From assembly GCF_021869535.1 (NCBI RefSeq), contig NW_026262734.1:40088487-40152486 (forward strand): a stretch of 64,000 bases of DNA, given 5' to 3'. The notes beneath the pieces were generated by a model that saw only the letters and a list, made by a program, of their open reading frames with translations, ran no database searches and was not told the origin of the DNA. Source of the stretch: Mytilus californianus. Taxonomy: Eukaryota. Made by a program: the position numbers and the translations under genes. This document shows, piece by piece, positions 3,511 through 49,577 of this stretch. Position 1 is the first letter of the stretch. The number at the start of each line of letters is the position of its first letter.

Positions 3511-3518
3511 TTACTTAC

Positions 3519-8593: not shown

Positions 8594-8870
8594 CTATAAA
8601 CAACAAGCAAGAAAATCAAATCAGCTGCTACCAATGTCATTAGGTTATAACGTATAAACAAATAGGGAGAAAATCCAATAAACTGCAATTACTTTCAACG
8701 GTGATACACCTATAAACAACAAAGGAGAAAAATCAAATCAGCTGCTACTTCATTTAGGTAGGCTACAACCAATAAACAACAAGGGGGAAATCAAATCAGT
8801 TACTGCCACTATTTTTTAGAGGAGTTACAACCTACAAACAACAAAGGAGGAAACTTATTGGTGACAACGA
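8594..8870. repeat. MVP intron 2: ~60-bp tandem repeat x5 whose unit begins with a copy of the exon-3 acceptor junction
   Basis: Units at 8585, 8646, 8706, 8765 and 8827 begin ACAACCTATAAACAACAA, the reverse complement of ttgttgtttatag|GTTGT (polypyrimidine tract, AG and first exon bases). Copies at 8706 and 8827 retain AG. Confidence 0.85.
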
Positions 8871-9219
8871 ATGGGTCAGCCGTGGAGGTGATATCATTGA
8901 AAGTCAATGAGAATTCATAATAACTTTCCTTTCTTCATTATGCTAATTGCAAATATTACTAGTATATCATGTAACCAATGAGCTGTAAAGCTTAAGATAT
9001 TAAAGTATATATACTACTTAACCCTGATCAGTAATATGTTACTGAAGATGCCCACAAGAACCATTTTAGGGGAACCCATGCCCAAAAGCTTGAATTAAAA
9101 CATCAAGTATTAAATGTGTATTTTCGACAAGTAATAATTATTCATTTACATTTAGTCTAACCACTATATGCTGTTCATTGCTAGATCAAATCTGGCACAT
9201 GTTATCACTAATATCATAC

Positions 9220-9415
9220 CTGTTTCAGTACTTCTCCAGGATACAAAGGGAAAGGATCCTGTGCCAATCTAATCTCTTGGTCAGCATGTACAAGTTTGGC
9301 CTGTCCACTTTCATCAAAGACAACTTTAGATTCTTTGTCCCTCAGTACCGGGTTTTCTACGATACAATAATGCCTTGGGGGTACAGTGATCATACGCTCT
9401 GGTCCATATACCACT
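9220..9415 (-). CDS. MVP: MVP exon 2 ([23 protein letters not shown]...[16 protein letters not shown])
   Basis: Acceptor tttacag|A and donor CAG|gtatga. Strong similarity to MVP repeat domain 1 ([10 protein letters not shown]...[18 protein letters not shown]). Confidence 0.9.
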
Positions 9416-9773
9416 CTGTAAATATCAATACACATTACATGTAGTATATCCAGCTTATTACGGTATTGACTTTGAAAAATATAACCTGATAAAAATTTAC
9501 TTTAAATTTGCCTGACCTGTCTTACATATGATATGCCGCAAGTCGATCTTGTCAATATTAAGTTTGACCAGTTTCATGGCCGGTAATGTAACATTGAATC
9601 TCATTTCGGCAGTGTACTCTGTCCTTTTGGTGTAATAAAAATCCACGATAACTTTTCCCTAAGGTTGTACTTCTGACGTAATAAACACACTAGTGTGAGG
9701 AAGATATACACTAGGACAATTCATTTACCGGAAATTCTACTCACCGGAATAAATAGGCTATAGTAATACTTAC

Positions 9774-16155: not shown

Positions 16156-19100
16156 ATCGTAGATAATCAGCCGCTAGACACAATGTGAAGCTCACTTCGA
16201 ACTTGTACTTGTAATGAGCAACATGATTGTTGCCACATGTGGAGCAGGTTCTGCTAACCCTTCCACGGAAAAATCGGACTGTCCCTCGTTTTTCGGTGGG
16301 GCTCGAGCAATTACTTTTTTACATAGTGCTTTGGGCTAGCTGTCGTTTGTCTTTTGTTGTTTTATCGTTTAATTTTTTTGCCATGGTTATTGTCAGTTTG
16401 TCTTCAACTTACGAGTTTTTAATATCCTTTTGGTACTTTCAGTTTCATTTTTTTTTGTATCAGTTTCCTTAAAAATCATTACTTTGTTCAATATTATGAT
16501 GATGCCAAAGAAAATCGTTGAAACGTCAAAGTAAGTGGTTAAGCTAGTTAAGAATACGAGGCTGGGATACAAGGCAGTGGTGGGTCCATTGGGGTCTGAT
16601 CCTTACTTATCTCCTCAGATTTGTTTTAAAATTATATGAGAAGTTTAGCTTCGAACTCCCTTTCTTATGTTTTTAAGGCTTTATGATTGGCTGGGGTATT
16701 GAAATATGGACACTGATGGGTTTTGTCCAAATTCAGCAGTAAAACGCACACTAAAGAGGGACGTATATTTTTGTATTTGCGGTATCTTATATAAATGCAA
16801 AGCTAAGTCCGTCGGGTCGGAGAACAATTTGTATGCTACATGCCCTCATTTTTCCCGTGGCAGTTAAAATTGCCACCATTCATTCCAGTAAACCCACTTT
16901 GCAGAACCTACATATTAGATTTAGTCTTAATTTATTCTCGTCTTGATTATAGATGAACTATTTGTAACTGTTTGTTAGGCATCAACAACCTAATAATCAA
17001 TAAGGTTTTACTAAGACACTTCTCGTAAATGGAAGAGGGTTCCCTTCATTTCTGAATTTTTTCAGTTTTTAGGTAATTTTTCTCAATTCTATATGTTTTG
17101 TCACCCTATTATTCTCTATTCTTTATATTTTGGCACCCAATTATTCTCTATTCCAGTTTAATTTTTGTCCAATTTTTCTCTATTCTTTAATTTTTTGTCC
17201 AATTTTTCTCTATTCTTTAATTTTTTGTCCAATTTTTCTCGATTGTTTAATTTTGGGCTCATTTTTCTGTAGATTTGGCCAATTTTTCTCCATTCTGTAA
17301 ACCCCACTAAACCCTCCATCATCATTTTCATGTTTTAAATTGTATAACTCAACTCCTGTGTAATTTGGACAATCTCTGTTAATTACAGATTATTTGTTTT
17401 TATTGCTGTAATTACTCAATATATCCAACCCATTCCTCCAAACCTCCAGAACAGGTTCCTTTAAATTCTGATCTTTTTCTGGGTCAATTTTATATTATCA
17501 GATATACTCTGTTTCTTGTCTGTTTATTTTTTGTTTATATTGGCATTGATGAAGAATGTGAAAGAGAGTCGAAAGATACCCAAGAGACATTCAAACTCAT
17601 AAGTTGAATACAAAACTGACAATGTCACGGCAAAAAACGAATAACAACGAAAAGACAAACAAATGTACACAAAACACAACATAGAAAACTAAAGACTGGA
17701 GCAACACGAACCCCACCAAAAACCGGGGGTCTCAGGTACGCTTTGACCAATGGTGAAAGACTTTATAAATTTACGCAGTTCAACTTGCTGATATAACGGT
17801 TCTAAAGAATGTATAAAAAAAATACCGAACTCCTAGGTTAAAAGGGGGACTTCCATAAAACCTAAGAAAACAAAACGATCGACTATATCAACCAACGGTA
17901 CAAGTTCTATTATTTAAAAAAAAAGAGTGAATTATGGATTACGTAAATCAATCAATACATTCCGTAATCACAGTGGTTTAATTTCGGTAACTTAATAGTT
18001 GATCGTTATGGAATATCTGTTTCACAGATGACGACGGATATGTTTCATCGGTTGTAACCACAACATACACAATCCAGTCCTCTTTTCCTCGAAAGAGACC
18101 TACCGAATTACACTTATCACTGGGTTTGTACTAACATGAGCAACACGACGGGTGCCACATGTGGAGCAGGATCTGCTTACCCTTCCGGAGCACCTGATAT
18201 TTATCAACCAACGGTACAAGTTCAAATATTAAAAAAAAGAGTGAATTATGGATTACGGAAATCATTCAATACAATCGGTAATCACAATGGTTCAATTTCG
18301 GTAACCAAATAGTTGAGCGTTATGGAATATCCGTTTCACAGATGGCGACGGATATGTTTCATCTGTTGTAACCAAAATCCCGTCCTCTTTGCCTCGAATG
18401 TGACCTACCGAATTATACTTATCATCGGGTTTGTACTAACTTGAGCAACACGAAGATCAACTTACCCTTCCGGAGCACCTGAGACCCCGGTTTTTGGTGG
18501 GGTTCGTGTTGCTCAGTCTTTAGTTTTCTATGTTGTGTTTTGTGTACATTTGTTTGTCTTTTCGTTGTTTTTCGTTTTTTGCCATGGCATTGACAGTTTT
18601 GTATTCAACTCATGAGTTTGAATGTCTCTTGGGTATCTTTCGCCTCTCTTTCACATTCTTTATAAATGCCAATATAAACAGAAAACAGACAGACAAGAAA
18701 CAGAGTATATCTGATAATTTAAAATTGACCCAGATAAAGATCAGAATTTAAAAGAACCTGTTCTGGAGGTTTGGAGGAAGGGGTTGGGTATATTAGTTGA
18801 GTAATTACAGCAATAGGAACAAATAATCTGTAATTAACACAGATTGTTCAAATTAAGCAGGAGTTGAGTTATACAATTTTAAACATGAAAACGATGATAG
18901 AGGGTCTAGTGGGGTTTACAGAATAGAGAATAATTCTACCAAAGCCAAATCTACAGAAAAATGAGCCCAAAATTAAACAATCGAGAAAAATTGGACAAAA
19001 AAATAAAGAATAGAGAATAATTGGGTGCCAAAATATAAAGAATAGAGAATAATGGGTAGCCAAAATATAGAGAATTGAGAAAAATGACCTAAATATTTAC

Positions 19101-19996
19101 AGAATTCTGAAATGAAGGATCCCTCTTCCATTCGAGTGTCTTAGAAAAACCTTATTGATTATTAGATTGTTGATGCCTAACAAACAGTTACAAATAGTTC
19201 ATCTATAATCAAGACGAGAACAAATTAAGACTAAGTCTAATGTGTAGGTTCGACAAAGTGGGTTTACTGGAATGAATGGTGGCAATTTTGACTGCCACGG
19301 GAAAAATGAGGGCATGTAGCATACCAATTCTTCTCCGACCCGACGGACGTGGCTTTGCATTTATATAAGATACCGCAAATACAAAAATATACGTCCCCCT
19401 TTAGTGTGCGTTTTACTGCTGAATTTGGACAAAACCCATTAGTGTCCATATTTCAATACCCTAGCCAATCATAAAGCCTTAAAAACATAAAAAAGGGAGT
19501 TCGAAGCTAAACTTCTCAAATAATTTTAAAACAAATCTTAGGAGATAAGTAAGGATCAGACCCCAATGGACCCACCACTGCCTTGTATCCCAGCCTCGTA
19601 TTCTTAACTAGCTTAACCACTTACTTTGACGTTTCAACGATTTTCTTTGGCATCATCATAATATTGAACAAAGTAATGATTTTTAAGGAAACTGATACAA
19701 AAAAAAAATGAAACAGAAAGTACCAAAAGGATATTAAAAACTTGTAAGTTGAAGACAAACTGACAATAACCATGGCAAAAAAATTAAACGATAAAACAAC
19801 AAAAGACAAACGACAGCTAGCCCAAAGCACTATGTAAAAAAGTAATTGCTCGAGCCCCACCGAAAAACGAGGGACAGTCCGATTTTTCCGTGGAAGGGTT
19901 AGCAGAACCTGCTCCACATGTGGCAACAATCATGTTGCTCATTACAAGTACAAGTTCGAAGTGAGCTTCACATTGTGTCTAGCGGCTGATAATCTA
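16156..19996. mobile_element. Foldback-type element: ~1.58 kb inverted arms (16156-17736 and 18479-19996) around a ~740-bp core carrying a ~300-bp tandem duplication
   Basis: Arms are reverse complements, e.g. the 81-aa ORF at 16227 (+) and the 102-aa ORF at 19621 (-) are identical. Termini are CGTAGAT(A/T)ATCAGCCGCTAGACACAATGTGAAGC. The subterminal motif TGAGCAACA..GCCACATGTGGAGCAGG.TCTGCT.ACCCTTCC recurs four times. No transposase ORF is present. Confidence 0.8.
17100..17290. repeat. ~32-bp minisatellite (TTTTGTCCAATTTTTCTCTATTCTTTAATTTT) x5 inside the foldback arm (mirror copy at 18900-19090)
   Basis: Direct reading. Part of the GGGTCTGGATGG-TIR MITE family. Confidence 0.8.
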
Positions 19997-21614
19997 CGTT
20001 ACATGCCTTCATCAATAAACTGACCGACTCGATTGTAGGAATTAATCCTTTTGGGACCATACATTGTATGTATAGCAGATGGATAACTCCATAAATTTAA
20101 ACAAAACTCAAATTGTCAAACAACCTCTGTGATTACGGACATTATTTCATATACATACAAAGATTTTAAACGTGTAGAAAGACATATACTCATTTGATTT
20201 TTAACAAATGATGTAGGTTTTTTTTTTAATGTTCAGTTTTGTATACAGCTGTCATTACTTAATCGATTAAGCAGCAAGCGTTCATGTATTCATTTACTTA
20301 GTCATAACAATATTGTATTTCAACGCTCTAACATTTTGATTGTCTCCGAGAACAGGTAATTCAATTATATATTCTTTATATTGTATTTATTCTTGAGATA
20401 ACTTCTCTGATGTGTGCTACATGTAAATCAGTCTTTCAATTTACGGCTGTTTGTGTAATTTTAATAAGAAGCACACCACCTATTTTTGGCCCCCATTGCT
20501 TTCTTCATTAAATTTTTTTACTTTCAAAAATTAAAGGGAAACGGTCAATTTACCGTTATTTACACATCAGACCGTACCGAAACTTTGGATACACCAAACC
20601 AGCTGGTACTTCATATCTGAGAAACAGGCAATGTACATTTTTGTATAATTAAAAAATATCAGTCAAATGGTGTTCTACAAAAATGTATTCTTCATGGTTT
20701 GATATTTACACCTATGCGTAGGAACTATTTTGTTTTAAATATGTACGACTGTTGGTATGTTCTTTTTGACCGGGCCCGAGTTGGTGGTGTAACAGCTTAC
20801 CAAGGAGGTTATAAGACTCCTTGGTCTTACGTAGTCTAGACGAATTATTTTCCATATACATACTGTATTTCCTGCTAATAAGTTATCTAACATATATCGC
20901 GATGTGCCCCGTGGTTGTCTAAATGTTTGTTTTGTTGCTGCAGTCGCATTCTTCAGTGTGATTGTCAGGCTAAATTACAATACATGTTTGATTTCTTTGC
21001 CTGATTTATTTATTGACATTACTCCATGGTTTTGTTCTTCAATTCACAGTTATGGCATGATCGTCAGTTTGCAAAGAACTCCGCTCAAACCGGTGCTAGG
21101 GGCCGTCTTAAACTTGCAGTGAGGTGAGAGTTTTTTGGCTCCTTGTTGAAAAACTCACTGTGACTTTGAGATGTTTCTTTGCTTTTTGTGTTTTTCAAGT
21201 ATTGCGCACATACTGATTTTTTGTCATGGATGGATCCCCTATATTTTTTCTTTTTTATTATGTAGTTTAATTCAGGACATCATAATCTTTTATTAGACCT
21301 TATTTATCCTTTAATGAACAAACATCTAAAATAAAAGCAGCGGTTCCATATTAAACATACCCTTTTTACATGATTGTTGAAAGTTTTGTAAATGAAAAAA
21401 AGGTGATGCATATGTTTAAAAGGTACATTGGACAACTTCTTCCTTTTGACTACGTGTATAAATAAGTACTTTCAAACCGCGCTGAAGTACGTTCACTATT
21501 CACTTTTCGCTATTCAAAATTCATGAAAAGTGAACTGGTTTTTTTTTGCACTTTTCACTATTCAAGTTTATTCAAATTGAATAACTTTAATATCTACTTG
21601 CATATATACAAATT

Positions 21615-21995
21615 AAAAAAAAATGTGGTATGATTGCCAATGAGACAACTCTCTACAAGAGACCAAATGGCACAGACATTAACAGCTACAGGTCACCGTA
21701 CGGCCTTCAACAATGTGCAAAGCCCGTACCGCATAGTCAGCTATTAAAGGCACAGAAATCACAAATGAAAAAAGAATTCAAACGAGAAAACTAACGGCCT
21801 AATTATTGTACAAAAAAAAAGCAAAAAAATAATATGTAACACTCCAAAAAACGACAATGACTTGGGACAGGCACATACATACAGAATGTGGCGGGGTAAC
21901 CATGTTAGCGGGATCCCAACCCTCCCCTAACCTGGGACAGTGGTATAACAGTACAACATAAGAACCAACTCTAATCAAAGTACTGAAGTACTGAA
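21615..21995 (+). mobile_element. SINE/MITE-like interspersed element (~380 bp), family copy 1
   Basis: Shares the head TGTGGTATGATTGCCAATGAGACAAC and the tail GACTTGGGACAGGCACAT...ATGTGGCGGGGT(A/T)AAC...CCTGGGACAGTGGTATAACAG with copies at 29540-29905 (-), 47380-47720 (+), 48040-48320 (-), 49185-49570 (+), 52230-52560 (+) and 53290-53640 (+). Partial copies lie at 56640-56780 (-), 57205-57330 (+) and 63300-63365 (-). Confidence 0.7.
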
Positions 21996-22870
21996 CATCG
22001 GATGACCGCAAGTTCTTGTGGATGGTCACAAGCACTTGTTTCAGATAAAAAATCACATCTCTATACCTGAAAGTGAGGTTAATGTACAGAGATATATTTT
22101 TTTCTGAGACAAGTTCGTGTGTGGATGATGAATACATGACAGGGAATTCAATTATGTAATATATGTTGTTAATTTTGCCATAGCATGTTTATGCTTTTGC
22201 AATAAAGATTCATTCATTCATTCATTCATTCATTCAACCTCACCGTAATAACTATTATATTGTAGCAGGTATATCTTAATATCTAGTATATATGTGTCTG
22301 ATTGTAGTGATACAAATCAGTATACTCTGGTTTACATTATATATTATATATTGTTATATATTATATTATATTATATATATTATATTAATACTTGTATATA
22401 ACAGTTGCATGTATATTTCATTTTCATTCATTTGTATATTATTCTATTCTACTATTCTATTGCAAGTGCATTGTGGACACTCTTCTGTAATAATTCGATT
22501 TTTCTAATAGATTGGATTGAATAGGCATTCATATTTTTCCGCAAAATGTTCTTGAGATATTCTTCCGCATGCGTTAACACATTTCTTCTAAACGAGTGCA
22601 AAGATATTAATGATTTTTTACTTATACAATGTATATATATTTCTAACGACAAAACATTTTCATATTATTCATTTATGTTATAGAATAAAATATTTTTATA
22701 AGTAATCATTAAAGAAATAAATTTATAACAGGCGATAAGGAATGTTATTTTGCACTCGATAATGTCCGCGTATTTATAGATCGGTTACCAGTCAAAAGCG
22801 AAAGTTACGTAAGTAGAAATCTCTGTTGCAACAATATATCGGAATGCCCTCACGGTCATCGCGATGAAAA
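21960..22870 (+). repeat. Dispersed ~700-bp repeat (second copy at 41805-42480 inside intron 1 of the VWA-CBM gene); this copy is expanded by (ATTC)7 at 22211-22238 and (ATATT)-type microsatellites at 22320-22440
   Basis: The pair shares long blocks, e.g. AATCAAAGTACTGAAGTACTGAACATCGGATGACC.CAAGTTCTTG.GGATGGTCA.AAGCACTTGT.TCAGA... and ...GATTGGAT..GA.TAGGCATTCATATTTT.CCGCAA... Confidence 0.75.
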
Positions 22871-23879
22871 AATCAGTTGTAAAAGGCTTAACTCATCAAA
22901 TGGATACAAATAGAAATACATATAACAAAACATAGAGTGAACGTGGCCGGGTACTTGTACATCCCAACAACAAAAAGACACTTAGTGCAGATCTGAGTGT
23001 ACTCTCAATTACTGACAGCTAGTTCAAAGCAAGTAACAACTAATAAAAAAAATACATCTAAGACTAAATTTTCAATCAATGCACATCGAACATGGATTTA
23101 GTGTTAAGATCAGAGAAAAACATGACATTGTGCAATGCCAAGATACAGGAATCGACAGATTGTAGATCAATGGAATTTAATTTATTGATAAAAACAATAT
23201 TAATACCAATATATACAATATTCAAAGAATTAATGACAGCGTTGAATTGGTAACCTTTTAGAATAAGTTTATTTAAAGGATCGATAAGTTGGTTTGTTTT
23301 GTGTAATGAATTGCTATAATTCGATTAAAATACTATCAGCTTAAAACGTTGAGGCCTAGTATTATATAGTATTAAGGTATAAAGAGATAGCATATTTGTT
23401 AGGCCTATCCCTTTTATCTACAATTAATTATTTTTTTACGTAAAATTCCACTTGATCGTGCATCTCAAATCCACTTATGCATATCTAGAAGCTAACGGTA
23501 CAATTCTCGCACTTAGTTTGTTACATATATTTCTAGGGGGTGGGGTCCACTTTTATTCATAAAGCATTAAAGTGAGCATTCGTTTCCGGCATCATTTCTC
23601 TATCGGGATGTCCACACTAATTGAAATCCGCCGACTAAACGGTACACCTTGTGTCAGGGGAGGGCAAAAGACTTATTATGTCTCTAAGTGCCAATAATTC
23701 TTTTCAAAATCTCACTTTCCAATTAAAAATACTCACATATTTACACATTTATATATAAAAAACATAGAAAAATATGAAAAGGCTATAAGAGGTAATATAC
23801 ACAAGTAATGAAAGTTTCGTATTAAACTATGGGTGTTTTCCTCAAGAAAAATCTAATAATAGCACTACCAAATAAGATA

Positions 23880-25490
23880 TCTGTGTTGTAGAACGCCCGA
23901 ATACCAAAAACAACACAAACAACGCTGAAAAAATACAACACAAATCACGTTACGATCGAGTTTTGAACCCCCGAATCCCCTAATTACAGGTATATCCTAT
24001 ATATCATAAGAAAGCTAATAAAAGGAGGAACAAAAGTTTTATAGTGAATATAGGGCACAGATCCGGTTTAAGGGGTAATGAAGCGGCCGAATACCGAAAA
24101 CGGCCGAACCTAAGAAAAAATACAACACAAATCACGTTACGATCGAGTTTTGAACCCCCGAATCCCCTAATTACAGGTATATCATAGATCTATCATAAGA
24201 AAGCTAATAAAATGAGGAACAAAAGCTATATAGTGAATATAGGGCACAGATCCGGTTTAAGGGGTAATGAAGCGGCCAAATACCGATAACGGCCGAACCT
24301 AAGAAATATTACAACACAAATCACGTTTAGATCGAGTTTTGAACCCCCGTTTCCCCTAATTACAGGTATATCCTATATATCATAAGAAAAGTAATAAAAT
24401 GAGGAACAAAAGCTTTATAGTGAATATAGGGCACATATCCGGTTTAAGGGGTAATGAAGCGTCCGAATACCGAAAACGGCCGAACCTAAGAAAAAATACA
24501 ACACAAATAACGTTACGATCGAGTTTTGAACACCCGAATCCCCTAATTACAGGTATATCATAGATATATCATAAGAAAGCTAATAAAATGAGGAACAAAA
24601 GCTTTATACACAGCTACTTTTGCATAGGTACTATTTCTGTACCAAAAATCTGTAGTACTGGAAATCTACTTTTAATTTTCAGTACTATTTTGTTACTTTA
24701 AATTTATTGTAATATTTAGGTACCTGTATTTTACAGTACTTGATTTGCACTTGAAATTTAAGTACTACAGATTTTTGGTTACACCGTTACATTTTCAGCA
24801 TTTTGAAAGTTTGTCTATTTCAAATCTCTTTAAGTTATGATTTTCAAACATATGGAATATTGCGATCACTGTTGGTATTATTTCTGTACCAAAATTTTTA
24901 GTCCAATCAAGTACTGTAAAATACGGGTACCTAAATATTACAATAATTTTAAAGTAAAGAAATAGTACTAAATATTAAAAGTAAATTTCCAGTACTTCAG
25001 ATTTTTAGTACATAAATAGTACCTATGCAAAAGTAGCAGTGTAGTGAATATAGGGCACAGATCCGGTTTAAGGGGTAATGAAGCGGCCGAATACCGAAAA
25101 CGGTCGAACTTAAGAAAAAATTCAACACAAATCACGTTACGATCGAGTTTTGAACCCTCGAATTCCCTAATTACAGGTATATCCTATATATCATAAGAAA
25201 GCTAATAAAATGAGGAACAAAAGCTATATAGTGAATATAGGGCACAGATCCGGCTTAAGGGGTAATGAAGCGGCCGAATACCGAAAACGGCCGAACCTAA
25301 GAAAAAATACAACACAAATCACGTTACGATCGAGTATTGAACCCCCGAATCCCCTTATTACAGGTATATCCTATATATCATAAGAAAGCTAATAAAATGA
25401 GGAACAAAAGCTATAATATAGTGAATATAGGGCACAGATCCGGTTTAAGGGATAATGAAGCGCCCGAATACAAAGAACGGCCGAACCTAT
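23880..25490 (+). repeat. ~185-bp satellite array, plus orientation (~6.5 units, interrupted by a MITE at 24609-25041)
   Basis: The unit ...GAATATAGGGCACAGATCCGGTTTAAGGGGTAATGAAGCGGCCGAATACCGAAAACGGCCGAACCTAAGAAAAAATACAACACAAATCACGTTACGATCGAGTTTTGAACCCCCGAATCCCCTAATTACAGGTATATCCTATATATCATAAGAAAGCTAATAAAATGAGGAACAAAAGCTTTATAGT... recurs with ~184-186 bp period. Confidence 0.9.
24609..25041. mobile_element. 433-bp MITE with ~150-bp terminal inverted arms, inserted into a satellite unit, flanked by TA/TA
   Basis: The satellite consensus ...ctttaTAgtgaatat... is split as ctttaTA[cacagctacttttgcatagg...cctatgcaaaagtagcagtg]TAgtgaat. Arms 24611-24760 and 24890-25040 are reverse complements. A TA target duplication is typical of Tc1/mariner-type (Stowaway-like) MITEs. 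Confidence 0.75.
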
Positions 25491-28400
25491 TCACTATATA
25501 GCTTTTACTCCCCATTTAATAAGCTTTCTTATGATATATAGGATATACCTGTAATTAGAGGATTCAAGGGTGCAAAACTCGATCGTAACGTGCTTGTTGA
25601 AGTATTTTTTCTTAGGTTCGGCCGTTTTCGGTATTCAGGCACTCAATTACCCCTTAAACTGGATCTGTGCACTATATTCACTATATAGGTTTTGTTCCCA
25701 ATTCTAAAAGCGTTCTTGGGATATATAGGATATACCTGTAATTATGGAATTCAAGGGTTCAAATCTCAATCGTAACGTGCTTGTTGAAGTATTTTTCTTA
25801 GGTTCGGTCGTTTTCGGTATTCGGGAGCTCCATTACCCCTTAAACTTGATCTGTGCACTATATTCACTATATAGGTTTTGTTCCCCGTTCTACAAGCTTT
25901 TTTAGAATGTATAGGATATACCTGTAATTAGGGGATTCAAGGGTTCAAATCTCGATCGTAACGTGCTTGTTGAAGTATTTTTTCTTAGGTTTGGCCGTTT
26001 TCGGTACTCGGGCGCTCCATTACCCCTTAAACTGGATCTGTGCACAATATTCACTATATAGGTTTTGTTCCCCATTCTATAAGCTTTCTTAGGATATATA
26101 GGATATACTTGAAATTAGGGTATTTAAGGGTTCAAATCTCGATCGTAACGTGCTTGTTGAAGTATTTTTTTCTTAGGTTCGGTCGTTTTTGTTATTCGGG
26201 CGCTCCATTACCCCTTAAACTGGATCTGTGCACTATATTCACTATATAGGTTTTGTTTCCCATTCTTTAAGCTTTCTTAGGATATATAGGATATACCTGT
26301 AATTAGGGGATTCAAGGGTTCAAATCTCGACCGTAACGTGCTTATTGAAGTATTTTTTCTTAGGTTCGGCCGTTTTCAGTATTCGGGCGCTCCATTACCC
26401 CTTAACATGGATCTGTGCACTATATTCACTATAAAGGTTTTGTTCCCCATTCTACAATCTTTCTTAGGATATATAGGACATACCTGTATTTAGGGGATTC
26501 AAGGGTTCAAATCTCGATCATAACGTGCTTGTTGAAGTATTTTTTCTTAGGTTCGGCCGTTTTCGGTATTCGGGCGCTCCATTACCCCTTAAACTGGATC
26601 TGTCCACTATATTCAGTTTAAAGGTTTTGTTTCCTGTTCTATAAGCTTTCTTAGGATATATAGGATATACCTGTAATTAGGGTATTCAAGGGTTCAAATC
26701 TCGATCTTTGTTAGGCCTATCCCTTTTATCTACAATTAATTATTTTTTTACGTAAAATTCCACTTGATCGTGCATCTCAAATCCACTTATGGATATCTAG
26801 AAGCTTACGGTACAATTGTCGCACTTAGTTTGTTACATATATTTCTAGGGGGTGGGGTCCACTTTTATTCATAAAGCATTAAAGTGAGCATTCGTTTCCG
26901 GCATCATTTCTCTATCGGGATGTCCACACTAATTGAAATCCGCCGACTAAACGGTACACCTTGTGTCAGGGGAGGGCAAAAGACTTATTATGTCTCTAAG
27001 TGCCAATAATTCTTTTCAAAATCTCACTTTCCAATTAAAAATACTCACATATTTACACATTTATATATAAAAAACATAGAAAAATATGAAAAGGCTATAA
27101 GAGGTAATATACACAAGTAATGAAAGTTTCGTATAAAACTATGGGTGTTTTCCTCAAGAAAAATCTAATAATAGCACTAACAAATAAGATATCTGTGTTG
27201 TAGAACGCCCGAATACCAAAAACAACACAAACAACGCTGAAAAAATACAACACAAATCACGTTACGATCGAGTTTTTAACCCCCGAATCCCCTAATTACA
27301 GGTATATCCTATATATCATAAGAAAGCTAATAAAATGAGGAACAAAAGCTTTATAGTGAATATAAGCTTTCTTAGGATATATAGGATATACCTGTAATTA
27401 GGGTATTCAAGGGTTCAAATCTCGATCTTAACGTGCTTGTTGAAGTATTTTTTTCTTAGGTTCGGTCGTTTTCAGTATTCGGGCGCTCCATTACCCCTTA
27501 AACTGGATCTGTGCACTATATTCACTATATAGGTTTTGTTTCCCATTCTATTATCTTTCTTTGGATTTATAGGATATACCTGTAATTGGGGAATTCAAGG
27601 ATTCAAATCGCGATCGTAACGTGCTTGTTGAAGTATTTTTTCTTAATAGGTTCGGCCGTTTTCGGTATTCGGGCGCTCCATTACCCCTGAAACTGGACCT
27701 GTGCACTATATTTACTAATAAGGTTTTAATCCGCACTCTATACGCTTTCTTATGATATATAGGATATACCTGTAATTGGGGGATTCAAGGGTTCAAATCG
27801 AGATCGTAACGTGCTTGTTGAAGTATTTTTTCTTAATAGGCTCGGCCGTTTTCGGTATTCGGGCGCTCCATTTCCCCTTAAACTGGATCTGTGCACTATA
27901 TTCACTATATAGGTTTTGTTCCCCATTCTATAATCTTTCTTAGGATATATGGGATACCTGTAATTAGGGGATTCAAGGGTTCAAATCTCGATCGTTACGT
28001 GCTTGTTGAAGTATTTTTTCTTAGGTTCGGCCGTTTTCGGTACTCGGGCGCTCCATTGATTACCCCTTAAAATGGATCTGTGCACTATATTCAGTATATA
28101 GGTTTTGTTTCCCGTTCTGTAAGCTTTCCTAGGATATATAGGATATACTTGTAATTAGGGTATTTAAGGGTTCAAATCTCGATTGTAACGTGCTTGTTGA
28201 AGTATTTTTTTCTTAGGTTCGGTCGTTTTCAGTATTCGGGCGCTCCATTACCCCTTAAACTGGATCTGTGCACTATATTCACTATAAAGGTTTTGTTCCC
28301 CATTCTATTATCTTTCTCTGGATATATAGGATATAACTGTTATTGGGGGATTCTAGGGTTCAAATCTCGATCGTAACGTGCTTGTTGAAGTATTTTTTCT

Positions 28401-28620
28401 TAGGTTCGGTCGTTTTCGGTATTCGGGCGCTCCATTACCCCTTAAACTGGATCTGTGCACTATATTCACTATATTGGTTTTGTTCCCCATTCTATAAGCT
28501 TTCTTAGGATATATAGGATATACCTGTAATTAGGGGATTCAAGGGTTCAAATTGCGATCGTAACGTGCTTGTTGAAGTATTTTTTCTTAATAGGTTCGGC
28601 CGTTTTCGGTATCCGGGCGC
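25490..28620 (-). repeat. Same ~185-bp satellite in minus orientation (~13 units), interrupted by an inverted segment at 26708-27364
   Basis: Reverse-complement units (GGATCTGTGCACTATATTCACTATATAGG...) with 184-186 bp spacing. The head-to-head junction with the plus array is at ~25489/25490 (ccgaaccta|ttcactatatag). Confidence 0.9.
26708..27364 (+). repeat. Inverted (plus-orientation) copy of ~500 bp of leader plus one satellite unit, embedded in the minus array
   Basis: 26708-27364 is a near-identical direct copy of 23396-24050 (tttgttaggcctatccc ... ctttatagtgaatata). The junctions show short microhomology (tata). Confidence 0.85.
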
Positions 28621-29539
28621 TCCATAACACAGATTTTCTATATGTTAGTGCTTTTTTTAGATTTTTCTTGAGGAAAACACCCCTCGTATTTTATGCGAAA
28701 CTTTCATTACTAGTGAATATTACTTCTTATAGCCTTTTCATATTTTTCTATGTTTTTTTTTATGTTTAAATGTGTAAATATGTGAGTATTTTTAATTGGA
28801 AAATGAGATTTAGAAAAGAATTATTAATATTTGCACTTTGAAAAATAATATGTTTTTTGCCCTCCCCTGACACAATGTGTACCGTTTAGCCGGCGGATTT
28901 CATTTAGTGTGGACATCCCGATATATGAGTGCTGGAAGAAACGAATGCTAACAAGTATCCTATCTCTTTATACCTTAATACTAGATAAAACTAGGCCTCA
29001 ACGTTTCAAGCTGATAGAATTTTAATCGAATTCTAAAAATTATTACACAAAACTTACCAACTTAAATAAACTTATTCTAAAAGGTTACCAATTCAACATT
29101 GTCATTAGATCTTTGAATATTTTTTTTATTGGTATTACTATTGATTTTGTTATCAGTAAATTAAAAGTAAACTAAATATTATTCTTATATACATATACAT
29201 TTTCATGGATCTCCAATCTGTCGATTCCGGTATCTTGGCATTGCACACGGTCATGTTTTTCTCTTACTGTTTATGACGTCTTTACACTAAATCCATGTTG
29301 GATGTGTACTGATTGAAAGTCAGTTTAGTTTTAAATGCATGATTTTTTTATTAGTTGTTATTGGCTTTAAACTAGCTGCCAGTAACTTGCGAGTACTCTC
29401 AGATCTGTACTTAGTGTCATTTTGTTGTTGGGATGTACAAATACCCGGCAACGTTCACTCTATGTTTTTGTTAAATGTATTTCTATGTTTATCCATCTCA
29501 TGAGTTAAGCCTTTTACAACTGATTTTTATAGTTCGTTC

Positions 29540-29905
29540 TTCTGTTGTACTGTTACACCACTGTCCCAGGTAGGGGGGGGGGGGGAGGGGGGTCCCGCTA
29601 AAATGTTTAACCCCGCCACATTCTATATGTTTGTGCCTGTCCCAAGTCAGGAGCCTGTATTTCCGTGGTTGTCGTTTTATGCTGTGTTACATATTTGTTT
29701 TTCGTTCATTTTTTTGTACATTAATTAGGCGTAATTAATTAAACATTCTAGTTTGAATTGTTTTTATATTAATATTTTGTGATTTCGGTGCGGTATGGGC
29801 TTTGCTCATTGTTGAATGCCGTACGGTGACCTATAACCGTTAATTTCTGTGTCATTTGGTCTCTTGTGGAGAGTTGTCTCATTGGCAATCATATCACATG
29901 TTCTT
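29540..29905 (-). mobile_element. SINE/MITE-like element, inverted partner of the 21615 copy within the palindrome arms (contains a poly-G run at 29571-29592)
   Basis: Reverse complement of 21615-21995 with indels. Confidence 0.7.
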
Positions 29906-31262
29906 TTTTATATACAAGTAGATATCAAAGTTATTCAATTTGAATAAACTTGAATAGTGAATAGTGCAAATAAAGTTCACTATTCATGAATTTTGAATAG
30001 TGAAAAGTGAATAGTGAACGTACTTCAGCCCGGTTACTTTCAACTTGTTCGCTGATATTTGTCACATCAATCGGAACAATGCGTTTACAAAATAATGGAG
30101 GTAAATATGTCTATTTTGTGTGAACTTCTGTTGTTGTGTTTTAATCCCACATCTATTTCAATTGTTTCTTTGTTAAGAAATGTAATTTTAATCTTATCTT
30201 GACTTAATATGATTAAAAAGAGATGTGATGAAATCCTAAAAAAAAACCTCAGACACTTAGAGGTTAACATACGACCATTAAATTTCCTTTAAATTACGAT
30301 TTCTTATATTTTCACAGGTATTTTGATACAAAAGTTCTACATGATGTGGTAAAATTTTGTATTTGAGCCACATTCGACCCTAAACGAATTTAGACAAGAT
30401 ATTTAGGTTTACGTCCAAAAATATTTTGATCTGGTGGATAATGTCTTTCTGAATCATTTGTTTGGATAGACATTCAAAATTTGCCCTAATCTGTCAAAAT
30501 TACTATTTTAAGCTTCCTTCGTGCGCTTGTTTATCTTGTTATAAATGAACTCATGATAACATTATTACAACCTAAAAGGTACACACATGAAGCTATTATA
30601 CTGTGAATTTAAGTAAAGGTTGAAAGAGCTTAAATTTGACTTTTTGAAAATGGCCCTAGTGCGAAATAAAATAATGTCGTTCTTGTGTAACATACATATA
30701 CAATGTGATTACGTTGGGAATGAAAAAAACGGAGATTAACCTTATCTTTTCTTTCTTTAATGGTAGCAATGAATTAAGACAGGAGCGGATCCCGGATTTT
30801 GAATGGGGGCGTAATTCAATAAAACGGATTATTTACCGAAAACTTTTTGGACGATTTCATGCTAAAAATTCATGTAAATCGTGAAAAAACATAAAATTAT
30901 TGTTTTGATATTACTGTTCAAAAAAAGAAACGCTTAGCTCAGATCAATTTTTCAAAACGCAAAATATATATTTTACAAGGTATTTTACAGGATAGTTTTA
31001 AACTTTAAATGTCCGTTCTTTTGATTTGGCTCTCTGCCACATAAAAGTTGCGACTTGCTAAAAGTGCATTTATATATGACCTTTTTCACCGCGAAATTTT
31101 GCTAACGTTTTTCACGAGAATTTTATGGTCAACTCTATTGTTACACTTTTGCGCATATAAGGACCAAATTTGAAGATTTAATTCATCACAACGTTAAAAA
31201 CTCTGCCATGCCAAGGTTGGACCCTGCTTTTTGAAATCGTCATCGGCTGTCTCTAGGCCGGA

Positions 31263-31640
31263 GTGTCCCAAAGTGAAGTAGCAAGAACTAAAAATAATAA
31301 CCAGAGCACAATTTCGCGACTTTGGAACAGATACCAGCAGACTGGCTGTACTAAAGACCGCCCGAGGAGTGGACGACCTCGCCTAACAACTCCTGGACAA
31401 GATCGCTATATATTCGGGTATTTCAACTTCGGAATTGAACCGTTGCCGCAACAGCCACTGCAGTTGAGATACCAGGATTGAGAATAATCGGTTCACAAAC
31501 AGTCCTCAATCGACTGCGACAACATGGCATCAGACCCAGGAGGCCGTTTTTTGGACCCGTTTTGAGGCCGTTTCACAAACGGAATAGAGTCCGATGGTGC
31601 AACAGATTGAGGGCTGGACATTCTGCAACTGGCCGAGGAG
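31263..31640 (+). pseudogene. Tc1/mariner-family transposase N-terminal (HTH) fragment with a frameshift; no DDE catalytic domain follows
   Basis: STISRLWNRYQQTGCTKDRPRSGRPRLTTPGQDRYI matches the Tc1 motif ...RSGRPRKTTPREDRRI. After a frame change, AATAVEIPGLRIIGSQTVLNRLRQHGIRPRRPFFGPVLRPFHKRNRVRWCNRLRAGH matches the Tc1 region RRRLREAGLRARRP...HRRARLAWAREH. Coding then degenerates. Confidence 0.75.
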
Positions 31641-32149: not shown

Positions 32150-33074
32150 ACAGGTCGGCCCGGAGACAACTCGGACAGTCTGCAAAAAAGACAACTCGGA
32201 GCGTTTATGAAGACAACTCGGATCGTATATAAGTCAACTCGGACCATCTACAATGCCAATTAAGACTAAGTATAAAATTAGAGTTTTGACGAAATAAATG
32301 ATTTAATGTGTCTGAAGAGAAGTAGTCTCTAATAAAATTTTGACGTCGATTTTGAGTATATAAATGACGAAAAAGACAACTCGGGCGTCTACAATTAAAT
32401 GATGCTCCGTAGATATTTTTTATTTCTGTTGTTTGAAAGCTGTATGAGTAAATAACGTTTGTAATGTTTAAGTAGATTCTTTATAGAATGATTAAATTTA
32501 CATTATTGAATGTTGATTCAATTTGATTATCATTACAAAATAACGAATTTAATTAACGATTCTAATATGACGTTCTTCTTTCGCTTTGGAAACAAAGCCA
32601 TGTTCTAATTCCAATAAAACATGGGCTGCACGTGCTTGACGTCACAATTGAAACCGCAACGCGTATTATAGGTCCGCTTCGAAGTACAAAAGTTCTAAAT
32701 TTTCCTATTAGAATCGAAATAATTCCATAATGCCATGTTCTATGCTAATGTTAACATGGGTAGGCATTATATTTGTCAACATTTTACACCTCGCTAACGC
32801 TTGGTATAAAAAGATATTGACAAATGTAATGCCTACCCATGTTAAAATGAGCATAGAGCATGGCATGAAATAATTATTTCTTAAATTTATAATGTTTGTT
32901 AGGTGAATTAATGAAGATTTTATTCAAAATATATAATCACCATGATGAAGTAGAAATAGGAATCTGCATTAAAGGATATGTTTATATAAATCATAACATG
33001 TTATCATATAAATAGCACAAACTCTATATGTTTATACTTTGTTGGAGTTGGCATTATAGACGGTCTGAGTTGAC
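32150..33074. mobile_element. TIR-bounded element (25-bp perfect IR GTCAACTCGGACCATCTACAATGCC) with ~27-bp subterminal tandem repeats (GACAACTCGGA...) and an internal ~160-bp palindrome
   Basis: IR at 32233-32257 and 33050-33074. GACAACTCGGA recurs at 32176, 32206 and 32376 (plus variant copies GTCAACTCGGA at 32233 and TCGGAGACAACTCGGA at 32170). The internal palindrome spans 32718-32780 and 32817-32880. Confidence 0.6.
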
Positions 33075-34201
33075 TTTAAAATAATGAATAAAGAATGTTG
33101 GTATTTATCAATTTAAAAAGTACAATTATTACCGTAGAAAAATTGTCAGAATAAAAAAGCTTACTTTTTAATACAATTCACGCCTAGTTTCAGAGTAAGT
33201 TGTGCAAAATTTGCCATTAAAAGTTTGACAAGAAAAGTTAGATCGGAAAATTGTTCATCCATATAAAGTACAAGTAACACTGGATGAGGAATTTAAGAAT
33301 TTAATAGGAATAAACATTCTATTATATTTATTTTAAGTATGCATGTTACGTTTTACACATTTTCAGACAAAAGAGGGATTTTGTTTTAAAGTTGCACAAC
33401 AAATCAGTCTGCAGATATAACCACTTTTAGCAAAACAACAAATTGTATCCTCAATTTGGAAAATAAAAAGAGGGAAAATAATGTTATGCCCTTTCCTCAA
33501 ATTCGAATATCATAAATCTTGAGTAAGATCTCGACGATAATACTACCCGGATAATGATGTGGATGGACAAAGGTTATCATTTCATTCGGATATTGTAACA
33601 TTTATCACTTAAAATACACATACAAAAATGCAGTTCACAACTCGTGTGTTTGACATAAAAGGGCTTAAGGTTGAAATTGTAGGAAGAGTTCAAATCATTA
33701 TCTTTGTAAAAAAATTACACTAAATAATAAATCATATTTAATTTTTATGTAAGTATACATCGGACTGAATATGAAAAAGTCTTTGTTCAAAAACCTAGCT
33801 GTACAAAATCAATCTCAAGGGTTGAGTTGGGTATAGAAATATAGTAATCTCTAGAAATGTCCGGTTCCAACAGTAAAACCCTTTCCTAAGCGTGGGATGT
33901 ATAAATTAACATTCACGTTGGGTCGGATGAGGTCCCTCGCGTTTACAGGATATGAATATCACTTGCGACAACTCTTTGGTGAAATATTTGCTACTGAACG
34001 TAAAGCGGGTAACATTCAATCAATCCAAACATAAACATGCATGATATCCAGGTGTCCTCATGCTTGTGTTTATAAAAAGAGTTAAAAACATACTTTTATA
34101 GGGACGTTGCAATGGTGACTCGCGTGTGACGGGTTTGCTTCCCTTCATTAGTAGATAACTAGTCGGACGTAAGCGGTTCGGCGAAGGGAGTACTTCTTTA
34201 G

Positions 34202-34274
34202 CTCAGTCGGTTAGAGCGCTGCCTTGTAACACAGAGGTCCCGGGTTCGAGTCCCTGAGGAGGCAAAGTGATTTG
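34202..34274 (+). pseudogene. Degenerate tRNA-like sequence (canonical D-arm TAGCTCAGTCGGTTAGAGCG and T-loop GGGTTCGAGTCC; anticodon stem not formable)
   Basis: The D-arm and T-arm are tRNA-like, and an anticodon-loop-like CTTGTAA is present. The acceptor 5' strand (ACTTCTT) does not pair with the 3' strand (AGGAGGC), and the anticodon stem has no complement. Confidence 0.5.
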
Positions 34275-35375: not shown

Positions 35376-37030
35376 AGTAACTTCCCTCTTGGAACACCGG
35401 TTCTTGGAATACAACTTTAAAAAGAGTAACTCGAATAATTCAGCGCCCTCTATCCACTACTGTTTTTGAAGGCAATGGAGTGATCGTAGTGATCGGAATA
35501 TAACGACTGGATTATTCGGGATAAAAAAGAGTGGACCACAGTGTCTCCATTATTACTTTAAAGCGTCATTTCGGTTTAAATTTTATAAAACTATCTTGTG
35601 AAAATTTCGGCAAAATTTGAATTTGGTATTTTCCCTATAAAAACAAAGATGTTATAATGTCATCATTTATTTCAACTACTAACTGAAATTGATTCCTTTT
35701 TTGTCCACCGCGCAACGCATTGCGTGGGACATAGAAATACCGGGCGTCCGTACGTCCTGTCTTGTTAGCGCCATAACGTGTACAATTCTTGTCCGATTTT
35801 TTTGACAATTATATCATAGGTTTATATCAGCAATGTATTGCACAAGTTCGAAAATCAGTGCCGATCATTTATTTTTAAAAGAGTTATGCCCTTGGAAACA
35901 TTAATTGTATGGAAAATTGCATCGTTAGCGCTCTCATTTGTACAATTCTTGCCAGATTTTTATGAAACTTATATCATAGGTTTATATGAGCAATGTCTCG
36001 AACGAGTTTGCAAATCAGTGCCGATCAATTATTCTTAAAAGAGTTATGCCCTTTGGAAACATTAATTATATGGAAAATTGCTTCGTTAGAGCTCTCATTT
36101 GTACAATTCTTGCTAGAATTTTATGAAACTTATATCATAGGTTTATATTAGCAATGTCTTTGACAAGTCCGAAAATCAGTGACGATCAATAATTTCTAAA
36201 AGAGTTATGCCCCTTGGAAATAGTAATTATTTGGAAAATTGCCTTATGAGCTCTCTAACGGTGAACAATTCTTGCCAGATTTTTATGAAATTTATATTTT
36301 AGGTTTATATCATCAATGTCTTTGACGAGTTCAAAAATCAGTGCCGAACAATTAATTTTAAAAGAGTTAGGCCCTTGGAAATAATGATTATATGGAAAAT
36401 TACATTGTCAGCGTTCTCATGTGTACAATTATTGCAAGAATTTTATGAAACTCATATCATAGGTTTATATCAGAAAGTAACTTCCCTCTTGGAACAAAAC
36501 TTTAAAACGAGTAACTCGAATAATTCAGCGACATCTATCCACTACTGTTTCTGGAGATAATGGAGTAATCGTAGTGATCGGAATTTAATGACTGGATTAT
36601 TCGGGTTAATAAAAAAGTGGACCACAGTGTCTCCATTATTACTTTAAAGCGTCATTTGGGAGTAATTTTATAAAACTATTTTGTGAAAATTTCGGCAAAA
36701 TTTGAGTTTGGTATTTTCCCTATAAAAACAAAGATGTTTTAATGTCATCAGTTATTTCAACCACTAACTGAAATTAATTCCTTTTTTGTCCCCCGCGCAA
36801 CGCGTTGCGGGGACATAGAAATACCGGGCGTCCGTCCGGACTTGTTAGCGCTCTCATTTGTACAATTCTTGCCAGATTTTTATGAAACTTATATCATAGG
36901 TTTATATGAGTAATGTCTTGGACGAGTTCGAAAATCAGTGCCGATCAATTATTTTTAAAAGAGTTATGGCCCTTGGAAACATTAATTATATGGAAAATTG
37001 TATCGTTAGCGTTTCTTTTAAAAAAAACTC
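35376..37030. repeat. Composite repeat: [~420-bp leader + ~160-bp tandem array x5] followed by [second leader copy (36473-36845) + 1.3 array units]
   Basis: Leader copies 35376-35795 and 36473-36845 are ~90% identical. Array units are spaced 160-170 bp apart (the ATATCATAGGTTTATAT landmark sits at 35811, 35971, 36132, 36294 and 36464). Each leader ends in a hairpin-forming palindrome, GTCCCCCGCGCAACGCGTTGCGGGGAC at ~36788. Confidence 0.85.
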
Positions 37031-37710: not shown

Positions 37711-38760
37711 CAGTGATTTTAAACGTGCAGAAAGACATACTCATTTGATTATTGTGACAGATGATGTAGTCTATTTTTTAAATTTTCAGTTTTGTATACA
37801 GCTTTCATTACTTTGTATAAATGAAATTTGTATACAGATGTCATTACTTAAATCGATTAATCAGAAAGCGTTCATGTATTCATTCACTTACTCATAACAA
37901 TATTGTATTTCAACGCTCTAACATTTTGATTGTCTCCGAGAACAGGTAATGCAATTATATATTCTTTTGAACATTTTTTCTGTTTTTGAAATTAGAAAAT
38001 GTAAAGTGTACATATACTTCGAACGCACCGATTATTCTTATTCTGTGTTTGCAAAGGCGGGATGCCTTTTTAACATAATTTTTTCAAATACAGTGATTTT
38101 TAACGTGTAGAAAGACATACTCATTTTTGTAACAGATAATAGTCTTTTTTTTCAATGTTCAATTTTGTATACAGCTGTCATTACTTAAATCGATTAATCA
38201 GCAAGCGTTCATGTATTCATTTACTTGCTCATAACAATACTGTATTTCAACGCTCTAACATTTTGATTGTCTCCGAGAACAGGTAATGCAATTATATATT
38301 CTTTTGAACATTTTTTCTGTTTTTGAAATTAGAAAATGTAAAGTGTACATATATTTCGAACGCACCGATTATTCTTATTTTGTGTTTGCAAAGGCGGATG
38401 CCTTTTCAACATAATTTTTTCAAGTACAGTGATTTTAAACGTGTAGAAAGACATGCTCATTTTTGTAACAGATGATGTAGTTTTTTTTCTTTCAATGTTC
38501 AGTTTTGCATACAGCTGTCATTACCTAAATCGATTAGTCAGCAATTGTTCATGTATTCATTTACTTGATCATAACAATATTGTCTTTGAACGCTCTAACA
38601 TGTTGATTGTCTCCGAGAACAGGTAATGCAATTATATGTTCTTTCGAACATTTTTTTTCAAATTAGAAAATTTAAAGTGTACATATCCTTCGAATGCACC
38701 GATCATTATTATTCTGTGTTTGCAAAGGCGGGATGCCTTCTTAACATAATGTTTTTTGTC
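37711..38760. repeat. Tandem array, 3 units of ~336-380 bp, preceded by leader 37541-37710; a solo leader+unit copy lies at 19997-20400
   Basis: Unit start CAGTGATTTTAAACGTG(C/T)AGAAAGACAT at 37711, 38091 and 38427. The leader GTTACATGCCTTCATCAATAAACTGAC... is shared by 19997 and 37547. Confidence 0.85.
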
Positions 38761-43442: not shown

Positions 43443-43705
43443 AGAAGGATGTATAAGTACTTAAATAGATGAGAAGCTATATAACCAAAACGGGCTTCAA
43501 AAGAATAGCTAAATCCTTCTCTGGTCAATTAGAAGGAGTTTGAACCTAAGTTTCTTAATAATTTCTACATTTATCAAAGGAGAATGTAAGAAAGTACTGT
43601 TATAAATCATGTCAGTACCGAAGTCAAAAAGTATCGTCGCCAGAAGTCAATTTTAGATGCTGGAAATTTAATTAACATCCCATATTGCTATATTTCTATT
43701 TGTAG

Positions 43706-49570: not shown

Positions 49571-49577
49571 GAAAAAG

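Follow-up and report, generated by a model that had tools for sequence, protein, structure and literature searches.

Between positions 21476 and 30034 of a 64,000-nucleotide stretch of the Mytilus californianus genome (NCBI RefSeq assembly GCF_021869535.1, contig NW_026262734.1, positions 40,088,487 to 40,152,486 of the forward strand; hereafter the window, to whose numbering the coordinates below refer) lies a diverged inverted repeat of 8,559 bp, whose arms contain arrays of a 187-bp satellite. This sequence is probably one decayed copy of a non-autonomous class II DNA transposon of the foldback type, i.e. an element with very long terminal inverted repeats (TIRs), which in this case bear the satellite. 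A palindrome at ~21470-30030 had been proposed in an earlier description made from the letters alone (below, the sequence-only reading), and the inverted repeat at 21476-30034 was recovered with Tandem Repeats Finder (TRF), an inverted-repeat search and a self-BLAST of the window; the last two methods retrieved both the array-to-array and the arm-to-arm pairings. What that description lacked was the evidence from the outer borders, a target-site duplication (TSD) next to TIRs, and this points to a foldback-type cut-and-paste transposon.

The homology between the arms breaks off at one base per side, 21476 on the left and 30034 on the right. The 9-bp sequence TACTTTCAA is present directly outside both of these bases, at 21467-21475 and 30035-30043. 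The two copies are identical and on the same (plus) strand, the left one abuts the first base of the inverted repeat, and the neighbouring bases differ, so that the maximal direct repeat is 9 bp. The right copy was assigned from the sequence, the alignment of the ends and an estimate of chance. In this estimate, made with 400,000 random position pairs from the window, the probability of a 9-bp flanking match was 2e-5 for exact abutment, 3e-4 with a tolerance of ±2 bp and 9e-4 with ±4 bp.

The outermost part of each TIR is a terminal domain, located at 21476-21611 (plus) and 29899-30034 (minus), and global alignment of the left domain with the reverse complement of the right one gave 93.1% identity. 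The left terminus starts with ACCGCGCTGAAGTACGTTCAC, and the right terminus ends with ...GTGAACGTACTTCAGCCCGGT or, reverse-complemented from 30034, starts with ACCGGGCTGAAGTACGTTCAC; the terminal bases are thus ACCG... and ...CGGT (termini also given as ACCGSGCTGAAGTACG, and the sub-terminal repeats as TTCACTATTCA). With three mismatches tolerated, the terminal 21-mer is confined to the two element ends within the window. Both terminal domains contain reiterated copies of the 11-bp motif TTCRCTATTCA in both orientations, four on the left and six on the right. These ten copies, all within the two terminal ~90 bp, account for all but one of the 11 matches in the window, the last lying elsewhere in the 64 kb, while 4.4 were expected window-wide. 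The motifs are putative transposase-binding sites. The combination of a TSD, TIRs and reiterated sub-terminal motifs is the signature of the insertion of a cut-and-paste DNA transposon; an inverted segmental duplication would not leave such borders.

A 9-mer, CTGAAGTAC, was found five times in the window (at 21482, 21983, 24992, 30020 and 41821) against 0.43 expected. All of its sites lie no more than ~45 nt from a transposon end: both termini of the element, the start of an 893-bp element nested in the left arm, the start of the paralogue of the latter, and the right TIR of a nested miniature inverted-repeat transposable element (MITE), the last three of which are described below. Its recurrence could reflect a common binding motif or coincidence.

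From the outside inward, each arm consists of (i) the 136-bp terminal domain, (ii) a repeat resembling a short interspersed nuclear element (SINE), (iii) a unique flanking domain of ~0.9 kb, termed the leader in the sequence-only reading, and (iv) the satellite array. The outer arms pair in three blocks: 21475-21974 with 30035-29527, 22868-23402 with 29528-28948, and 23575-23911 with 28949-28602. Their BLAST identity is 80-85% when gaps are counted. Over aligned columns it is 93.1% in the terminal 136 bp and 90-91% elsewhere, and the Kimura two-parameter distance is uniform at 0.07-0.10; the identity of ~90% proposed earlier therefore holds for substitutions and falls to 80-85% once indels are counted. 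The outer arms had also been thought to match over ~2.4 kb. The left arm does contain 2.45 kb in total to the left of its array, but only ~1.4 kb is common to both arms, since the pieces 21975-22867 (893 bp) and 23403-23574 (172 bp) are present on the left only and have no counterpart on the right.

The pairing of the arms is unbroken from the termini through to the satellite. The TIRs constitute most of the element, pairing from 21476/30034 inward to ~25489, and the 187-bp arrays are present in both arms, internal to the ~1.4 kb of non-tandem sequence. None of the stop-to-stop open reading frames (ORFs) of at least 70 aa inside the element contains a Pfam domain, and therefore the element is regarded as non-coding. 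A transposase domain is likewise absent from it, the sole one in the window being a Tc1-like helix-turn-helix (HTH) remnant at 31257-31478.

The relation between the two arms is most clearly seen in the SINE-like repeat. It occupies an identical position in both arms, at 21612-21974 (plus) on the left, where its last ~23 bp resume at 22868-22890 past the left-only insertion, and at 29507-29898 (minus) on the right, where it is uninterrupted and includes a poly-G run (~29573-29592). It follows from this shared position that the arms are copies of each other, made after the insertion of the SINE-like repeat, and that they are not two independent insertions of a leader with its satellite. Further copies of the repeat were identified by alignment at 47335, 48329, 49182, 52229 and 56787. 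The copy at 49182-49561 and the right arm have in common the sequence ...AACTATAAAAATCAGTTGxAAAAGGCTT; the repeat thus crosses the supposed outer edge of the leader (22868/29528). As the repeat continues past the start of the leader, the 893-bp insertion is located inside the SINE-like repeat, and the leader lacks a terminus on its outer side. No tRNA-like head was found in the repeat with Rfam. In all, the right half of the window (47335-57327 and 63317-63392) contains no fewer than seven additional copies or fragments of this ~390-bp repeat, one of which (52229-52621) runs into an (AACAA)n tract (52616-52735).

The left-only nested insertion at 21975-22867 (893 bp, plus), opposite which the right arm is contiguous at 29527/29528, contains (ATTC)n and AT-rich microsatellites (TRF). 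It has a direct paralogue ~20 kb downstream, at 41810-42370, with 82-92% identity, and both start with TAATCAAAGTACTGAAGTACTG. The left flanking domain (22891-23926, plus) pairs with the right one (28626-29506, minus) at 90-91% of aligned columns. It includes the 172-bp piece (23403-23574), which was either gained by the left arm or lost from the right, and no convincing TSD was found for either the 893-bp or the 172-bp piece. In the window, the left flanking domain has no other copy apart from its right-arm partner and a 652-bp segment located in the right array (see below). At the flanking domain, both arrays open with the same truncated and degenerate monomer fragment of ~25-35 bp, and no monomer-like sequence was detected in the remainder of this domain.

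The 187-bp units were located by TRF at 23927-24608 and 25042-25489 in the plus orientation, and at 25488-26706 and 27361-28625 in reverse; this agrees with the proposal of plus and minus arrays of one satellite meeting head-to-head, the meeting point being ~25489 and the unit 187 bp. The arrays are unequal in size, with ~6 monomers on the left and ~13 on the right, and the position of the symmetry point at ~25489 is owed partly to left-arm insertions that offset the shorter left array. A palindromic MITE of 433 bp (24609-25041) splits the left array. It is 78% identical to its own reverse complement and is flanked by a TA duplication, its junctions being ...CTTTATA / CACAGCTACTTTTGC...GCAAAAGTAGCAGTG / TAGTGAATA, and the phase of the monomers resumes beyond it. 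The sequence-only reading had listed this TA-flanked MITE and the poly-G run among its arm-specific insertions, and both are present.

When the monomers were aligned, those of the same arm were 90-97% identical and those of different arms 79-88%. Sixteen alignment columns separate the left array from the right, each array being fixed, or close to fixation, for a base of its own; they define two subfamilies, L and R. The left array (23927-25489, plus) has the L state in 16 of 16 diagnostic columns. The right array is of the R subfamily in its inner part (25488-26708, minus; TRF), where monomers R1b to R1g are all R, as well as in its outer part (27361-28625, minus; TRF, monomer matrix and diagnostic columns). 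Since each array has fixed its own derived variants, concerted evolution proceeded within the arrays after the arms split. The right monomer closest to the centre, R1a, is a mosaic with four L and nine R states, which suggests, from the sequence, that homogenisation is weaker at the edge of the array. As regards a higher-order (dimer) organisation of the right array, TRF periods of 375-379 score about as well as those of 187-190, and the monomer matrix is without clear alternation. In L-type monomers, AACCTAAG is preceded by a CGGCCG(N11)CGGCCG hairpin, which is broken in R-type monomers (CGCCCG). An origin of the monomer from a tRNA or SINE, considered because of a GGTTCAAATC-like motif, was rejected, as neither ARAGORN nor Rfam gave a match within the element, even at E<=1.

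The arrays adjoin without a separate central domain. The plus array halts at ...GGCCGAACCTA and the minus array opens at the complement of ...TATAGTGAATA; between them, a stretch of 60 nt (25428-25487, plus) consists of ordinary monomer sequence present in one orientation only, around which AGTGAATA (25420-25427) pairs with TATTCACT (25488-25495). The mirror image described around ~25490 is therefore real in that the arrays meet at ~25489, although it is not exact at its centre. The 60-nt stretch would be the loop of the foldback. In a folding prediction, single-stranded DNA of 25042-25935 (894 nt) formed one long imperfect hairpin at -319.5 kcal/mol, compared with -87 for shuffled sequences (z = -47), and the predicted position of the loop agrees with the 60-nt stretch; the locus had been put forward as a hairpin-forming candidate, and the predicted energy supports this.

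The right array is interrupted by a 652-bp segment (26709-27360, plus), a copy of left-arm sequence ~23397-24048 that comprises the 3' part of the flanking domain and the first L-type monomer. With its junctions included, 26704-27364 is a same-strand copy of 23392-24052 at 98.6% identity, with nine differences and no gaps, far above the ~90% between the arms. The monomer in the insert has the L state in all 13 scorable diagnostic columns, and the insert contains the 172-bp piece that is absent from the right arm. Around the insert, 69 bp of the recipient array are perfectly duplicated in direct orientation (26640-26708 and 27361-27429; longest common substring, 69 bp). At the two junctions, 2 nt (TT) and 4 nt (TATA) are common to the donor and the recipient array. 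The copied segment starts ~6 bp upstream of the boundary of the 172-bp piece (23397-23403 in the donor, 26709-26715 in the insert). The sequence-only reading had noted an extra inverted leader and unit at 26708-27364; a plus-oriented segment does exist there, 652 bp long and recently copied from part of the left arm.

Two microhomology-mediated template switches, in the course of replication or repair of hairpin-prone DNA, are the most likely origin of the insert. The nascent strand would have quit the right array to copy 652 nt of left-arm sequence, located 3.3 kb upstream, and on its return would have joined the right array 69 nt behind its point of departure. The nine differences between donor and insert argue for a real paralogous copy.

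It could be objected that the whole structure arose in place, a segment of flank and satellite having been copied in reverse beside itself by a fold-back or template-switch error, with the 9-bp repeat a mere coincidence. We consider this unlikely, although several observations agree with it: the arrays meet out of phase at an asymmetric 60-nt centre, as a template switch within an array would leave them; the 652-bp insert with its 69-bp duplication indicates that template-switch-like events occur at this locus; a long inverted repeat without a TSD lies nearby (16158-19998); and no other copy of the termini is known. However, a duplication in situ creates no direct repeats at the outer borders, and the one observed has a probability of 2e-5 to 9e-4 by chance. 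Moreover, the outer borders are formed by a domain of clustered 11-bp repeats, typical of transposon ends, and the homology breaks off at the corresponding base on either side.

The sequence-only reading had favoured leader and satellite modules, in three or four copies of alternating orientation, resembling Helitrons or Helentrons. According to this explanation, such HINE-like elements were inserted or rearranged head-to-head. The left flank of bivalve HINEs contains a sub-terminal inverted repeat, a complementary inverted repeat and a microsatellite; it is followed by a core of tandem repeats (a short satellite array) and by a right flank of ~60 bp with a sub-terminal inverted repeat and a palindrome. 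HINEs are found at TT target sites and have no TSD (PMC7492417). Consistent with this, the same flank-to-array junction occurs three times at the locus, and the hairpin of the L-type monomers is followed by AACCTAAG. As in Cg_HINE/pearl, a short satellite-like array (monomer of ~160-190 bp) is joined to a conserved non-repetitive flank, and Cg_HINE/pearl is dispersed as part of a mobile element. The Helitron and Helentron features that were tested were nevertheless absent. The outer edge of the leader is not an end: outside it, both arms go on into the SINE-like repeat and, further out, the terminal domain. The flank lacks a 5' end of its own and has no microsatellite in 22891-23926 or 28626-29506 (TRF), and neither array has a right flank or a 3' palindrome, the two running together at 25428-25495. 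The 9-bp TSD stands in the place of an insertion at TT, whereas HINEs and Helitrons make no TSD (PMC7492417), and the TIRs are of kilobase scale, whereas the inverted repeats of HINEs are sub-terminal and 11-12 bp long. Helitrons have a 5' TC and a 3' CTRR with a sub-terminal hairpin, insert between A and T, and lack TIRs and a TSD; the real ends of the present element are ACCG.../...CGGT, with neither TC nor CTRR, and the outer edge of the leader lies inside the SINE-like repeat. The hairpin of the monomer, followed by CTAA, was considered as a Helitron 3' end and rejected, because R-type monomers have not kept it and a matching 5' TC is lacking. The third flank-to-array junction belongs to the recent partial copy and is not an insertion, so that the supposed three or four modules are two arms plus this 652-bp copy of left-arm sequence. 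Finally, no remnant of a Rep or helicase was found in the window. A Helentron-type origin is thus very improbable, while the idea of a mobile element carrying the satellite still holds, with a different vehicle.

An artefact of sequencing or assembly, whether from a chimeric read folded back on itself or from the mis-joining of repeats, is the least plausible explanation. Satellite palindromes are classic trouble spots for assembly, and a local mis-join might account for the 652-bp insert and its perfect 69-bp flanks, but chimeric reads give near-identical arms, whereas here the arms differ by ~10% substitutions and many indels, contain different nested insertions and separately homogenised monomer subfamilies (which argue strongly against any such artefact), and meet at an asymmetric centre, and the insert differs from its donor at nine positions. 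The earlier view that the inverted structure is real and aged, and no product of chimeric reads, was therefore well founded, the private insertions, the 16 diagnostic bases and the asymmetric centre all speaking for it.

Returning to the foldback-type transposon, the locus agrees with foldback architecture on every feature tested. The closest parallel is Tetris of Drosophila virilis, a non-coding element with TIRs of up to 1.7 kb composed of an outer flanking domain and tandem repeats of ~220 bp, and with TSDs of 8-10 bp; its authors placed it in Mutator on the basis of TSD length and because most foldback elements apparently belong there (PMC4079207). Both elements are non-coding and have long TIRs, in each of which an outer unique flank is followed by repeats of ~200 bp (220 bp in Tetris, 187 bp here). 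The TSD is 8-10 bp there and 9 bp here, the stretch common to flank and repeat is 37 bp in Tetris and ~25-35 bp here, and in both cases the repeats behave as satellite-like DNA. In contrast to Tetris, the arms here are ~2.5-3.8 kb long, excluding nested insertions, and the arrays abut with only the 60-nt asymmetric stretch between them. It should be noted that Tetris is documented by many copies and by free arrays, whereas one copy was seen here; the likeness is one of architecture, and similarity in sequence is not to be expected.

The FB elements of Drosophila melanogaster, of the Mutator/Foldback group, have long unequal arms composed mostly of tandem repeats inward from a unique terminal domain, often with little or no loop, make 9-bp TSDs and are prone to rearrangement. 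The repeats of FB are 10, 20 and 31 bp long, compared with ~187 bp here, and the host lineage differs; in addition, a transposase link is known for FB, whereas that of the mussel element is putative. Galileo of Drosophila belongs to the P superfamily and makes 7-bp TSDs, and the TU elements make 8-bp TSDs, while the maximal duplication here is 9 bp. As Galileo is alike in architecture but belongs to the P superfamily, the foldback form can evolve in different superfamilies. Both Galileo and the sea-urchin TU elements are described as having foldback-like long TIRs with internal tandem repeats (PMC3573991, PMC4168063). Compared with foldback architecture generally, the present element differs in its longer arms, its directly abutting arrays and the SINE-like repeat captured in both arms.

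The history of the element may be reconstructed as follows. The SINE-like repeat was captured before the duplication that gave the two arms. Cutting at both termini would have been the work of a transposase provided in trans, and insertion at a staggered break would have duplicated TACTTTCAA. After their split, the arms diverged by ~7-10% and each array was homogenised alone, giving rise to the two monomer subfamilies. The left arm gained the 893-bp element and the TA-flanked MITE, and the right array the 652-bp, probably templated copy of the left arm. We infer from the present structure the mobility of the element as a unit, the family of its transposase, the mechanism of template switching and the order of these events. 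The 9-bp TSD points to an enzyme of the Mutator/Foldback type, while an 8-bp TSD extended by one chance base would fit hAT or Merlin. Mutator-like (MULE) transposons are reported from every mollusc genome surveyed (PMC10294476) and are a possible source of the partner.

Several points weigh against a foldback-type transposon. The length of the TSD does not by itself separate MULE from hAT or Merlin, and at a single locus the TSD is a matter of probability. The element is represented by a single copy: neither a second copy of its termini nor an empty site or an autonomous partner was found in the window or in the collections searched, and when the reconstructed empty site, ...GTGTATAAATAAG TACTTTCAA CTTGTTCGCTG..., was compared with the window, only the flanks themselves matched. 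Searches for more copies of the flanking domain, or of the satellite adjoining it, likewise gave nothing beyond one outgroup monomer. We know of no superfamily consensus that the terminal bases ACCG... would fit. The inverted repeat at 16158-19998 indicates that long inverted repeats without a TSD occur in this region too. With an arm divergence of 7-10%, the element, if ever mobile, is probably dead now. Finally, the foldback form may predate the insertion or may have arisen in place within a simpler TIR element.

Relatives of the satellite were sought more widely. A protein profile of satellite-derived ORFs gave no match among 5.8 billion predicted proteins, and the terminus and satellite patterns gave none in viral contigs or in prokaryote genome contigs. 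Six conserved 10-12-mers of the monomer had no match in the text-format satellitome supplements for C. gigas and Limnoperna fortunei (PMC8268682, PMC12818792) or in searchable full text. Scanning of metagenome contigs with the satellite pattern revealed one marine contig (ENA ORXM01087741), which at positions 1-190 contains ~1.1 monomers with 88% identity. The monomer is a mosaic of ten L and six R states and is usable solely as an outgroup. The monomers stand at the start of this 1-kb low-coverage contig and are followed by unrelated sequence, and the array ends at about the monomer phase at which the arrays of the mussel element begin.

The rest of the window contains further repeats and two sets of protein-coding exons. 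A second long inverted repeat (16158-19998) is located 1.5 kb upstream of the element. Its arms (16158-17737 and 18477-19998) are 91-95% identical, with a spacer of ~740 bp and termini CGTAGATWATCAGCCGCTAGACAC, and they contain tandem repeats of 30-32 bp (17075-17254 and 18967-19085); no flanking TSD was evident. To the right of the element, at a distance of 1.2 kb, 31257-31478 (plus) gave a weak HTH_29/HTH_32 match with a ...RPRSGRPR...-type motif and is probably a remnant of the N-terminus of a Tc1/mariner transposase. Two satellite-like arrays, at 35764-36473 (161-bp unit, 4.4 copies, 83% match) and 37827-38756 (337-bp unit, 2.8 copies, 91% match), are unrelated to the 187-bp family. A tRNA-like sequence at 34191-34265 (plus; 40.6 bits with the Rfam tRNA model), for which ARAGORN gave an undetermined identity with a 4-nt anticodon (tgta), may be a tRNA pseudogene or the head of a SINE. 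Two short segments, 32716-32880 (165 bp) and 54150-54295 (146 bp), are probably small MITEs of palindromic structure, as each aligns with its own reverse complement at ~80% identity.

On the minus strand, at ~1700-9500, there are exons of the major vault protein (Vault, Vault_2/3/4 and MVP_shoulder, with E-values down to 2e-63), which mark the genome as that of an animal and as intron-bearing. The best match of one of these exons has 98% protein identity, while the closest public contig (ENA ERZ6864376) is 82-91% identical at the DNA level, which indicates a related species. At 43672-44307 and 46027-46449 (plus), a VWA exon precedes one that encodes two chitin-binding Peritrophin-A (CBM_14) domains, an architecture that we take to resemble the molluscan shell-matrix proteins of the Pif/BMSP type. 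The best public relative of the VWA exon is 82% identical in protein. The contigs that underlie the best matches of both genes are 82-85% identical in DNA and hence come from a related species.

Few transposons are known to give rise to satellite DNA and to bring about inversions and other rearrangements; foldback elements belong to these few, and what is known of them comes mostly from Drosophila. A clear example from outside Drosophila would therefore widen the known routes by which satellites originate and spread. For annotation, the locus suggests that one should look for TIRs and a TSD at the outer borders of such structures before classing them as segmental inverted duplications or as Helitron-like. 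It combines 187-bp arrays within kilobase-scale TIRs and a TSD with arms that were homogenised apart and with the recent scar of a probable template switch, and as such it would be a compact natural case of concerted evolution in two arrays of the same origin and of instability at long palindromes. That the 187-bp satellite family was seeded and spread genome-wide by a foldback-type cut-and-paste transposon is a tentative proposal, for which we see a minority chance. If true, such transposons would be a second vehicle for the dispersal of satellite DNA, beside the Helentron/HINE route described in bivalves, and their hairpin-prone arms would be hotspots of template-switch rearrangement.

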